Assembly: GCF_030384885.1 (NCBI RefSeq)
Contig: NZ_CP128613.1
Reading direction: 5' to 3' (one strand)
DNA: 64,000 nt
Source of the DNA: Escherichia coli
GTDB taxonomy: Bacteria > Pseudomonadota > Gammaproteobacteria > Enterobacterales > Enterobacteriaceae
Position numbers and translations under genes: made by a program. Shown here piece by piece: positions 26,070 through 59,765 of the stretch (position 1 is its first letter; each line of letters starts with the position of its first letter). Under the pieces are notes generated by a model. That model saw only the letters and a program-made list of their open reading frames with translations, was not told the DNA's origin and did no database searches.

Positions 26070-26426
26070 TTAACAAAGGCGCTCCAGATCGTGTGCATAT
26101 AATTCAGCGGCTACCGATTGATAGATCTTCCAGTCAATAAAATTGCCATCAGGGTAGACACGTTGAAACGCGGTTAAGTCAGGGAAAAAACGCATGGTGT
26201 TGTTGCCGATGTGGTTATTTATTTTCTCTATGATGGCATGAAGATGTTTTTTTCGTTGCTGTCGCATAGCCAACAGTTGCTCGACCACACGATCAGGAAT
26301 GGCGCATTTGCCATTTTCCCACTGACGCCAGCTTTCACTGTCACCGGTCTGGGCAATCCAGGTCGCGCATTCATCAATAGTCATGGCAAAAATATGGCGG
26401 AGTGCCTGGAGTTCATAAGCGTTCAT
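26070..26426 (-). CDS. ydiL: Uncharacterised protein YdiL
   Basis: 118-aa frame from internal ATG (MNAYELQALRHIF...); the track ORF begins at an upstream TTG. Confidence 0.85.
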   Translation of the reverse strand: MNAYELQALRHIFAMTIDECATWIAQTGDSESWRQWENGKCAIPDRVVEQLLAMRQQRKKHLHAIIEKINNHIGNNTMRFFPDLTAFQRVYPDGNFIDWKIYQSVAAELYAHDLERLC

Positions 26427-26563
26427 CGTGTAATGGCTGCATGAAATAAACAATAAAATATAAATAACATTATCAGCCTGCTGACGGCTTGAAGAGAGTC
26501 ACAGTATCTTGTGCAACATTATTGGAAAGAGTGAGGGGCGAGGTAGCGAAGCGGAAAAATGTT

Positions 26564-26669
26564 AAAAAAAAGCCCATCGTGGGAGATGGGCAAAGACTAC
26601 ACACAGCAATTCGTTGTTTCACTCAGGGGATTTCCATGCTTATAAATCAATATGTTGATTTATAACCGT
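26564..26669 (-). ncRNA. rprA: RprA small regulatory RNA (RpoS translational activator)
   Basis: minus-strand sequence ACGGTTATAAATCAACATATTGATTTATAAGCATGGAAATCCCCTGAGTGAAACAACGAATTGCTGTGTGTAGTCTTTGCCCATCTCCCACGATGGGCTTTTTTTT matches RprA as I remember it, with terminal hairpin and U-tract; located in ydiL-ydiK intergenic region. Confidence 0.9.
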
Positions 26670-26854
26670 GAGCTAATAGTAGGCATACGGACTTTTTGCG
26701 TCGATCAGATTCGTCTCATTAGTTTAAAAACTGTAAAGAATTTGCGACAGGTACTACCAGCTGAAAGGCGGTAAGCAGGAAAATATAGTGAAGAGCAAGC
26801 AAATATCAATTAGCGGTGGTTAACAATCAGGCGGCAGAGCCGCCTGATGAGAAA

Positions 26855-27967
26855 TTACTTATTCGGTTTCTCGATTTCGCCAAGTTCTTCGAGAATTTCT
26901 TCCGGTTGGTCCGTCGGCGGCGGGACTTCTTCCACCCACGCGGCAAACAGACGCCAGGAAACGGCTAACAGAACCGGACCAATAAACAGACCGATCATCC
27001 CGAAAGCAATCAAACCACCAATAACGCCAGAGAGGATCAGGATCAGCGGTAAATCGGCACCCATGCGAATTAACATTGGGCGGATGACGTTATCCAGCGT
27101 GCCAACCACACCACTCCATACCAGTAATACCGTGCCCCAGGTGGTATCGCCGGTCCAGTAAAGCCAGATGATCGCCGGAATCAGCACCGGCAGCGGGCCA
27201 AGTTGGACAAGGCAGGAGAGGATCATTAACACCGTGAGCAAAGTTGCATAAGGTACGCCGGATACCGCGAGGCCGATACCACCAAGCACTGCCTGTACTA
27301 ACGCAGTCACCACAACACCCAGCGCCACTGCGCGGATAGCTTGTGCCGCTAGCAGCACGGCGGCATCTCCACGAACGCCTGCCAGACGGGTAGCAAAATG
27401 GCGAATGCCTTGCGCCACTTGTTCACCGCGCCAGTACAGCAGGGCGCTGAAGAGAAGCATCAGCGCACAATGCACCATAAAGCGCCCGATATGCGCCGCC
27501 TGCCCAACGAACCAGGTGGTGGTGGTGCCAATATAAGGACGGAGTTTCGCCATGATCGCCGTACCCCCCATATCCAGCAAGTTGTGCCAGCCTGCATATA
27601 GCTTCGCGCCAATCACCGGAATGGTATTAAGCCACGCCAGATCGGGTAACGTCATGTCACCGCTGGAAATAGCTTTAATAAGCGGGCCGCTGCCATCGAC
27701 AATACTGTTAACCAACAAGGCAATAGGGATGATAAACACCATCACTAATAACAGCGTCATCACCAGAACGGCGAGAGAGCGGCGGCCAAACATGATCTTT
27801 TGCAAACGTAACAATACCGGCCAGGTAGCGATAACCACCGTACCGGCCCATGCGAAACCGAGAATAAAGGGTTGAACAATCCACAGACATGCCACAATCA
27901 TGATGGCTAAAAACAGCACCGAAAGCAGAATTTGTGCGACATCCCTGGGCTGACGAACATTTACCAT
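26855..27967 (-). CDS. ydiK: AI-2E/PerM-family membrane transporter
   Basis: 370-aa hydrophobic ORF. Confidence 0.9.
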   Translation of the reverse strand: MVNVRQPRDVAQILLSVLFLAIMIVACLWIVQPFILGFAWAGTVVIATWPVLLRLQKIMFGRRSLAVLVMTLLLVMVFIIPIALLVNSIVDGSGPLIKAISSGDMTLPDLAWLNTIPVIGAKLYAGWHNLLDMGGTAIMAKLRPYIGTTTTWFVGQAAHIGRFMVHCALMLLFSALLYWRGEQVAQGIRHFATRLAGVRGDAAVLLAAQAIRAVALGVVVTALVQAVLGGIGLAVSGVPYATLLTVLMILSCLVQLGPLPVLIPAIIWLYWTGDTTWGTVLLVWSGVVGTLDNVIRPMLIRMGADLPLILILSGVIGGLIAFGMIGLFIGPVLLAVSWRLFAAWVEEVPPPTDQPEEILEELGEIEKPNK

Positions 27968-32105: not shown

Positions 32106-32259
32106 TCCTGACGTAATGCCGCGAGTTCGCCAAATCGGCCTGGATTAATCTTCGTCCAGGTTCGAGGGCCTTCTTAATACTGCTTATCTACCCGCCTGAT
32201 AACGTTCAAAAATAATACAGATCGCAGTTTGTGCTAAAACAGCGGCTTAGCTTTATGAG

Positions 32260-32360
32260 ACTATTCTTATCGCCCCTTCAAGAGCTAAGCCACTGTGAGT
32301 GCCGGAGATAAGCGCCGGATGGGGTAGAAACCCTTAAGCCTGTGATGCACAGACTTAAGG
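32260..32360 (+). ncRNA. rydB: Candidate RydB-like small RNA locus (boundaries approximate)
   Basis: ydiH-sufA intergenic region; 5' hairpin (gccgg-agataagc-gccgg) and terminator-like hairpin aaacccttaag-cctgtgatgcacaga-cttaagggttt followed by tcttatttct; RydB is known to map between ydiH and sufA, exact sequence not recalled. Confidence 0.45.
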
Positions 32361-50049: not shown

Positions 50050-50355
50050 TCAGGCGAGTTTTGCCTGATTGATTTGACTCAGTGGCTCATTGACATCGAA
50101 AACTTTGGCGACAACTTCCTCAACGCCGAGATTTTTCAGTCGGGCAGTATGTTTTTCCAGATAGGCAAGGGCGCTTTTTTCATCAGTGAAAAGGTAGATC
50201 CCACCGGCTTCGTGGTTCTTTTCACTTTCTGTCCATACCTTCCACAGAAAACCAGGTTCCTGATTAATCGACTCAGCAAGCGGTTTAAGCTGCTCAGCCA
50301 TTGCGTCGCCAAATGGGCCATTAAAAGCAAAATGAAGTTGTAACAAAGTTGCCAT
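50050..50355 (-). CDS. ydhR: Small Dabb/antibiotic-biosynthesis-monooxygenase-like protein
   Basis: 101-aa ORF; terminator hairpin downstream (aagggcg-gttag-cgccctt). Confidence 0.85.
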
Positions 50356-50462
50356 AGCGATTCTCCTTCTGATAACGCATACGAAGACAGTGTAAATCTT
50401 TTAACGTATTGGATACAGAGAAGAAACAGAGGGAAAAAGGAGAAGACCAGATTAAGAAAATC

Positions 50463-50539
50463 TGGTGCGTCCGAGTGGACTCGAACCACCGACCCCCACC
50501 ATGTCAAGGTGGTGCTCTAACCAACTGAGCTACGGACGC
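50463..50539 (-). tRNA. valW: tRNA-Val (anticodon GAC)
   Basis: minus strand GCGTCCGTAGCTCAGTTGGTTAGAGCACCACCTTGACATGGTGGGGGTCGGTGGTTCGAGTCCACTCGGACGCACCA: 77 nt, cloverleaf-compatible, encoded CCA; copy assignment valV vs valW inferred from gene order. Confidence 0.95.
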
Positions 50540-50543
50540 AGGA

Positions 50544-50620
50544 TGGTGCGTTCAATTGGACTCGAACCAACGACCCCCACCATGTCAAGGTGGTGCTCTA
50601 ACCAACTGAGCTATGAACGC
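50544..50620 (-). tRNA. valV: tRNA-Val (anticodon GAC)
   Basis: minus strand GCGTTCATAGCTCAGTTGGTTAGAGCACCACCTTGACATGGTGGGGGTCGTTGGTTCGAGTCCAATTGAACGCACCA: 77 nt, differs from its neighbour in acceptor and T stems; 4-nt spacer. Confidence 0.95.
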
Positions 50621-59212: not shown

Positions 59213-59253
59213 TCCATTTCACTCCAGACCCTAACTTCAGCTCCTGCAAAATC

Positions 59254-59274
59254 GCAAGGTAAACGTTTGCCTTT
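59254..59274 (-). promoter_or_regulatory. PUR-box-like operator in purR leader
   Basis: minus strand AAGGCAAACGTTTACCTTGC, about 45-60 nt upstream of purR ATG. Confidence 0.6.
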
Positions 59275-59510
59275 ACACACCTTACGCACAACAAAAGTGT
59301 TGCGGTACGCCGGAAAAACGACACGGAGCGTCAGGAAGGGGTCAATGGCCAGTACGCAAATAGTGTAAGCGTGGAATTTTGGCCGATCTTGACGAAAAGG
59401 GGAAGTGGTAAAAACACTTATCATTATAAATGACGGGAGATTTTTTCATCACAGTGTGTAAAAATGCGTAATATCACTTTTTGTGTGGTAATAAAAAAGG
59501 AGAAAACTTG

Positions 59511-59600
59511 ATGAGCACCGACCTTAAATTTTCACTGGTAACAACGATTATCGTCCTCGGTTTGATCGTAGCCGTGGGTTTGACTGCCGCGCTGCACTGA
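59511..59600 (+). CDS. ynhF: 29-aa single-TM small membrane protein
   Basis: ATG preceded by AGGAG SD (aaaaaaggagaaaacttg ATG); encodes MSTDLKFSLVTTIIVLGLIVAVGLTAALH; below the size cut-off of the supplied ORF track. Confidence 0.75.
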   Translation: MSTDLKFSLVTTIIVLGLIVAVGLTAALH

Positions 59601-59765
59601 TTTCCTCTCGAGGGAGCGCGTTCTCCCTCGCATCTCCTTCCTGTTTGTTAGCAAAATGGCAAAAGTGTTTTCTCTTTTTGTTATTTTCATTTTTTTGTGA
59701 TTGCTGTCATGCTTTCGCCACTTTAATGAATATCGCGTAATGACGCGAAGAGGTGGAGATAAGGC

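Follow-up and report, generated by a model that had tools for sequence, protein, structure and literature searches.

The feature at 26564..26669 is the canonical, already known rprA gene of Escherichia coli in its known context, and there is nothing new about it. It lies on the minus strand of a 64-kb stretch of E. coli DNA, which was analysed at its full length of 64,000 nucleotides and is referred to below as the window. We consider it almost certain that the locus encodes the free-standing, 106-nt, Hfq-dependent small RNA (sRNA) RprA, which has an activator-dependent sigma-70 promoter of its own, is activated by RcsB and activates rpoS. The identity of the gene, the RNA structure, the promoter architecture, the conservation and the synteny were computed on the window sequence. 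The activation by RcsB, the dependence on Hfq and the activation or repression of targets are taken from literature on the identical sequence. Since the RNA and the promoter are both identical to those of K-12, the published K-12 experiments apply directly.

Identification of rprA

The minus-strand sequence of 26669..26564, ACGGTTATAAATCAACATATTGATTTATAAGCATGGAAATCCCCTGAGTGAAACAACGAATTGCTGTGTGTAGTCTTTGCCCATCTCCCACGATGGGCTTTTTTTT, is identical at 106 of 106 bases to rprA of K-12 MG1655 (b4431; NC_000913.3 1770372-1770477), and this 106-nt sequence is present in a single copy in the window. An Rfam 15 scan of the whole window gave a match to RF00034 (RprA) at 26669..26562 on the minus strand with 118.5 bits (E = 1.6e-16). 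The match exceeds the gathering score of 70, spans model positions 1-108 of 108 and is not truncated. Rfam and PGAP set the 3' end of RprA at 26562, compared with 26564 here. In RefSeq NZ_CP027579.1 (E. coli 2013C-4282), which is 100% identical to the spacer, rprA is annotated at the same place. The preliminary description had read the locus as an intact, full-length RprA on the minus strand, complete with terminator hairpin and U-tract, and had named an Rfam covariance search and an alignment to the reference rprA as ways of checking this. Both analyses bear the reading out: the covariance match covers all model positions, the alignment reveals neither mismatch nor truncation, and the hairpin and the U-tract are in place. 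The features discussed below are collected in Table 1.

Table 1. Positions of rprA, its constituent elements and its neighbours in the window.
Feature	Position	Strand	Description
ydiK	26855..27967	minus	Upstream neighbour of rprA; name from a 100%-identical RefSeq record
GC-rich 10-bp hairpin	26826..26848	minus	6 nt past the ydiK stop codon; -18.2 kcal/mol (RNA fold); without U-tract
RcsB box TGAGACGAATCTGA	26705..26718	minus	-49..-36 from the TSS; abuts the -35
Core rprA promoter	26676..26704	minus	-35 TCGACG (26704..26699), 17-nt spacer, -10 TACTAT (26681..26676)
rprA (106-nt RprA sRNA)	26564..26669	minus	TSS is the A at 26669; 3' end after U8 at 26564
SL1 (RprA 5' stem-loop)	26638..26667	minus	RprA nt 3-32; predicted in the MFE and centroid folds
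Mostly single-stranded middle	26599..26637	minus	RprA nt 33-71; paired with the rpoS leader in the co-fold
Intrinsic terminator	26564..26591	minus	7-bp stem and 6-nt loop at 26591..26572, then U8 at 26571..26564
ydiL	26070..26426	minus	Downstream neighbour of rprA; name from a 100%-identical RefSeq record

The rprA promoter and its RcsB box

The RcsB box TGAGACGAATCTGA is a perfect match to TN(G/A)GAN4TC(T/C)NA, the published consensus for boxes bound by the RcsB homodimer (PMC7913699). Salmonella PrprA DNA covering position -53..-33 has been co-crystallised with RcsB (PMC7913699), and the 21-mer at the same position in the window (26722..26702) is one base off the crystallised DNA. As a pattern the box is not rare, with four matches in the 64-kb window against 2.3 expected; the support that it lends to the assignment comes from its position and its conservation rather than from the rarity of the pattern.

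The core promoter matches the sigma-70 consensus at 8 of 12 positions and has a weak -35. A generic sigma-70 scan left this true rprA promoter under its threshold and flagged a site further upstream instead, which is considered below; such a sub-threshold score is what is expected of an activator-dependent promoter. In K-12, whose promoter is identical, published work has shown that rprA transcription depends on RcsB in vivo (cited in PMC7913699 and PMC4152358). That an RcsB-dependent promoter lies just upstream of rprA, towards higher coordinates, had also been claimed in advance; the perfect box at 26718..26705, its near-identity to the crystallised site and its recurrence in 115 of 117 homologous loci (see below) corroborate this.

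Published work further shows that rprA is induced by both RcsCDB and CpxAR and repressed by LrhA (PMC5861431; PMC5736990). A scan with the CpxR consensus GTAAA-N5-GTAAA, allowing at most two mismatches, returned 73 matches in the window against 58 expected, a background too high for a CpxR site to be placed by the two weak spacer matches, at 26723-26737 and 26778-26792.

Conservation across Enterobacterales

Homologous loci were gathered with an exact 23-nt probe corresponding to the RprA core (nt 59-81), which retrieved at least 120 species-level genome stretches. The matches come from Escherichia, Citrobacter, Enterobacter, Pantoea, Erwinia, Serratia, Yersinia, Dickeya, Pectobacterium, Hafnia and Providencia. 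The stretch covered by the probe is conserved by construction, and no conclusion was drawn from this. An RcsB box was found in 115 of 117 species-level loci, no further than 148 nt upstream of the core and mostly at one distance, and the chance of meeting such a box is roughly 0.01 per locus, as estimated from the degeneracy of the box. The conserved block in the 117 loci has sharp edges, beginning at about -55 and ending at +106, directly after the U-tract. Within it the box-defining bases, the "GAC" of the -35 and the "TA..AT" of the -10 are each at least 95% conserved. As far as the aligned loci tell, constraint is visible over only about 160 nt of the spacer (-55..+106), the remainder being unconserved and polymorphic.

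One of the loci, labelled E. coli SCPM-O-B-8794 (L040), departs from the window at a defined point: homology ends exactly after the T-run of the RprA terminator (L040:1383 onward). By this alignment the RprA 3' end marks a synteny breakpoint in L040.

The ydiK-ydiL spacer

The genes ydiK, rprA and ydiL follow each other on one strand in the same order as in K-12. The spacer in which rprA had been placed, between ydiL and ydiK and 428 nt in length, occupies 26427..26854 and is as long as its K-12 counterpart; it is present in 5423 of the 5426 complete E. coli genomes. The preliminary description had also called this spacer a regulatory hub. The label suits the rprA promoter, on which published inputs from Rcs, CpxAR and LrhA converge (PMC5861431), but not the 428 nt as a whole: only about -55..+106 is conserved across genera, the part upstream is polymorphic, and ydiL is found downstream of rprA in just 8 of 109 loci (E. 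albertii, several Citrobacter and two others). Around the locus, a 24-kb portion of the window (15000-39000) matches E. coli 2013C-4282 (NZ_CP027579.1) at 100.0% identity and any other of the 5426 complete E. coli genomes at no more than 98.4%, a comparison that suggests a rather isolated source lineage.

Only three SNPs (26766, 26787 and 26789) separate the spacer from that of K-12. They lie 97-120 nt upstream of the TSS and fall outside the conserved promoter block. An exact copy of the 71-nt haplotype with the three SNPs occurs in only 4 of the 5426 complete E. coli genomes; roughly one genome in two gave no megablast match to the 71-nt haplotype probe. Two of the changes, 26789 C>A and 26787 C>T, turn CATATT into TATATT and bring the site that the sigma-70 scan had flagged from 9/12 in K-12 to 10/12 in the window. 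The resulting TTGATA-16-TATATT (26809..26782) has the orientation of rprA and lies about 106 nt upstream of the rprA TSS, and it could be taken for a second, RcsB-independent promoter, which would produce a 5'-extended RprA precursor and make expression constitutive. Apart from the improvement of the site by the SNPs, the rarity of the haplotype speaks for this idea, which we nevertheless regard as very unlikely. A consensus match is no evidence of function, and the scan returned three sites of this kind in 700 nt, where 1.1 would be expected; a 9/12 site is already present at this position in K-12; and the region is unconserved across genera and polymorphic within E. coli, which fits neutral drift. 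We know of no upstream rprA TSS reported in K-12. The upstream sigma-70-like site is probably non-functional. Were it to act as a promoter, an RcsB-independent precursor of about 210 nt would be made in the 2013C-4282 lineage, and the basal level of RprA, and with it the control of RpoS and curli, would no longer be coupled to envelope stress.

Closer to ydiK, the GC-rich hairpin at 26826..26848 was not called in the terminator scan, its T-run being missing. It probably represents the 3' end of ydiK or a stabiliser and belongs to the context outside rprA, and it may permit some read-through towards rprA. RprA could alternatively be mainly a ydiK 3'-UTR-type product, made by read-through from ydiK and subsequent processing rather than from its own promoter. 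Such an origin would agree with the presence of ydiK upstream of rprA, on the same strand and always a few hundred nt off, in 102 of 104 species-level loci, and with the hairpin past its stop codon, which may be a leaky terminator as it has no U-tract. It is hard to reconcile with a conserved RcsB box, -35 "GAC" and -10 "TA..AT" at a fixed distance from the annotated RprA 5' end, or with conservation that collapses upstream of about -55, unlike what one would expect of a functional UTR. The K-12 annotation and the published work on RcsB and PrprA, moreover, place a primary TSS at the RprA 5' position, and we judge an origin from ydiK to be extremely improbable.

The probability that a small protein is made instead of or besides the RNA, from a 49-aa GTG ORF (26622..26473, minus) or a 58-aa TTG ORF (26489..26665, plus), is close to nil: both figure in the mechanical ORF list, but the minus-strand ORF starts within RprA and crosses the terminator hairpin and the U-tract into sequence unconserved between genera, the downstream sequence is wholly different in L040 and most other loci, no CDS is annotated at these positions in RefSeq or K-12, and ORFs as short as 49 or 58 aa are expected by chance. 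These small-protein readings of the overlapping ORFs were rejected for want of conservation.

Structure of RprA and its terminator

The RprA transcribed from its own promoter is predicted to fold into three stem-loops, with a modest z-score of -2.0 for the fold of the whole RNA. Published work describes three stem-loops in RprA and a site at which RNase E cleaves to release a shorter form, and the 5' stem-loop has been proposed as the duplex-recognition element for RNase E (PMC6202311). When the homologues were aligned by sequence only, 76% of the cells in SL1 were canonical pairs, and double-sided changes occurred in 10 of its 12 pairs. The 23-nt core used as the probe (nt 59-81, 26611..26589), which recurs without change across Enterobacterales, overlaps the mostly single-stranded middle. 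According to the terminator scan, the terminator stem has five GC pairs out of seven and is followed by TTTTTTTT. Among 110 distinct homologues, 99% of the pairs in this stem are canonical, with compensatory changes at three of the seven. Hfq binding and Hfq-dependent regulation have been published for RprA (PMC4152358, PMC5736990), and the U8 tail is compatible with them. As in other Hfq-dependent sRNAs, the U-tail is probably also the 3' end to which Hfq binds.

Pairing with the rpoS leader and other targets

The Shine-Dalgarno (SD) sequence of rpoS is sequestered by a sequence upstream of it; RprA, DsrA and ArcZ pair with this upstream sequence and so activate rpoS translation, and RprA also represses csgD and ydaM (PMC4152358). 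The rpoS leader used in our pairing tests was the K-12 sequence rather than that of the window's own genome. Folded alone, it had the SD/AUG region (-14..+4) paired with -114..-98. In a co-fold, RprA nt 33-71 made 28 intermolecular pairs with leader positions -134..-94 (dE = -16.8 kcal/mol relative to the separate monomers), a pairing that covers the -114..-98 arm, the partner of the SD/AUG region. The SD is not freed in the MFE model of the dimer but refolds locally, so that the model cannot be used as proof of activation. RNAduplex with full-length RprA against the 597-nt rpoS leader gave a long-loop duplex that is meaningless and no better than shuffles. With RprA nt 30-75 it found the expected site, at an energy that did not stand out from shuffled RprA (z = -1.2; 56 of 500 shuffles as good). 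The in silico models are only suggestive of RprA-rpoS pairing, and the anti-antisense step is taken from the literature.

In the mechanism proposed for the locus, the Rcs envelope-stress phosphorelay would deliver phosphorylated RcsB as its output, which would bind the box at -49..-36, directly next to the weak -35, and turn on rprA transcription, with activation by CpxR and repression by LrhA as further published inputs on the promoter. The transcript would have a stem-loop at its 5' end and a Rho-independent terminator at its 3' end, joined by a largely single-stranded middle, and processing by RNase E could yield a shorter 3' form. The middle would base-pair with the upstream arm of the rpoS 5' leader's inhibitory helix and thereby switch on RpoS translation, while pairing of RprA near the ribosome-binding sites of csgD and ydaM (dgcM) would lead to their repression.

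An ORF-only track misses RprA, a real and well-characterised link from Rcs/Cpx envelope stress to RpoS and to the control of curli and biofilm. An rprA intact and identical to that of K-12, in a lineage with only about 98% identity to any other complete genome over the surrounding 24 kb, shows that the circuit is present there as well. The value of the identification is for annotation only, and it opens no new question.

Other small-RNA features of the window

Two more enterobacterial sRNA families were matched above their gathering scores by Rfam and are, like rprA, invisible to an ORF-only track: STnc550 at full length at 59213-59603 (+; 396.5 bits) and STnc540 at 1734-1892 (+; 67.4 bits). 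An Rfam match to rydB (83 bits) was obtained at 32272-32332 (+). Another of the only four RcsB-box matches in the 64-kb window (2.3 expected by chance), TGAGACTATTCTTA at 32256-32269 (+), ends 3 nt before it. Such a box would overlap the -10/TSS region of rydB and may be a coincidence; if real, it may mediate repression of rydB by RcsB. A literature search for rydB together with RcsB returned only irrelevant matches (RCSB PDB and similar). A 112-bit match to HPnc0260, a Helicobacter antisense RNA family, at 50339-50501 (+) runs into a tRNA gene encoded on the other strand. The tRNAs there are at 50466-50539 (-) and 50547-50620 (-), the part of the hit that matches best is the 3' half of a tRNA in reverse complement, and the match looks like an artefact of the model rather than a true homologue.

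Comparison with known systems

The sRNAs DsrA and ArcZ share the mode of action of RprA, their target being likewise the upstream arm of the SD-sequestering helix in the rpoS leader (PMC4152358). They differ from RprA in being unrelated in sequence, in being encoded at other loci, neither of them in the ydiK-ydiL spacer, and in responding to other inputs (low temperature for DsrA, ArcAB for ArcZ).

PrprA of Salmonella Typhimurium carries the same RcsB box, TGAGACGAATCTGA, at the same -53..-33 position, and the single base difference from the window lies in the flank of the 21-mer (CTATTG in Salmonella, CTAATG in the window). RprA of Salmonella Typhimurium is likewise an RNA of about 106 nt with three stem-loops. 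It activates rpoS and ricI; the latter target is on the pSLT plasmid and irrelevant to the window.

Closest of all is RprA of K-12 (b4431; RF00034), which has the same 106 nt, the same ydiK-rprA-ydiL context and the same spacer length of 428 nt, and whose promoter is identical to that of the window from -96 to +1, RcsB box included.
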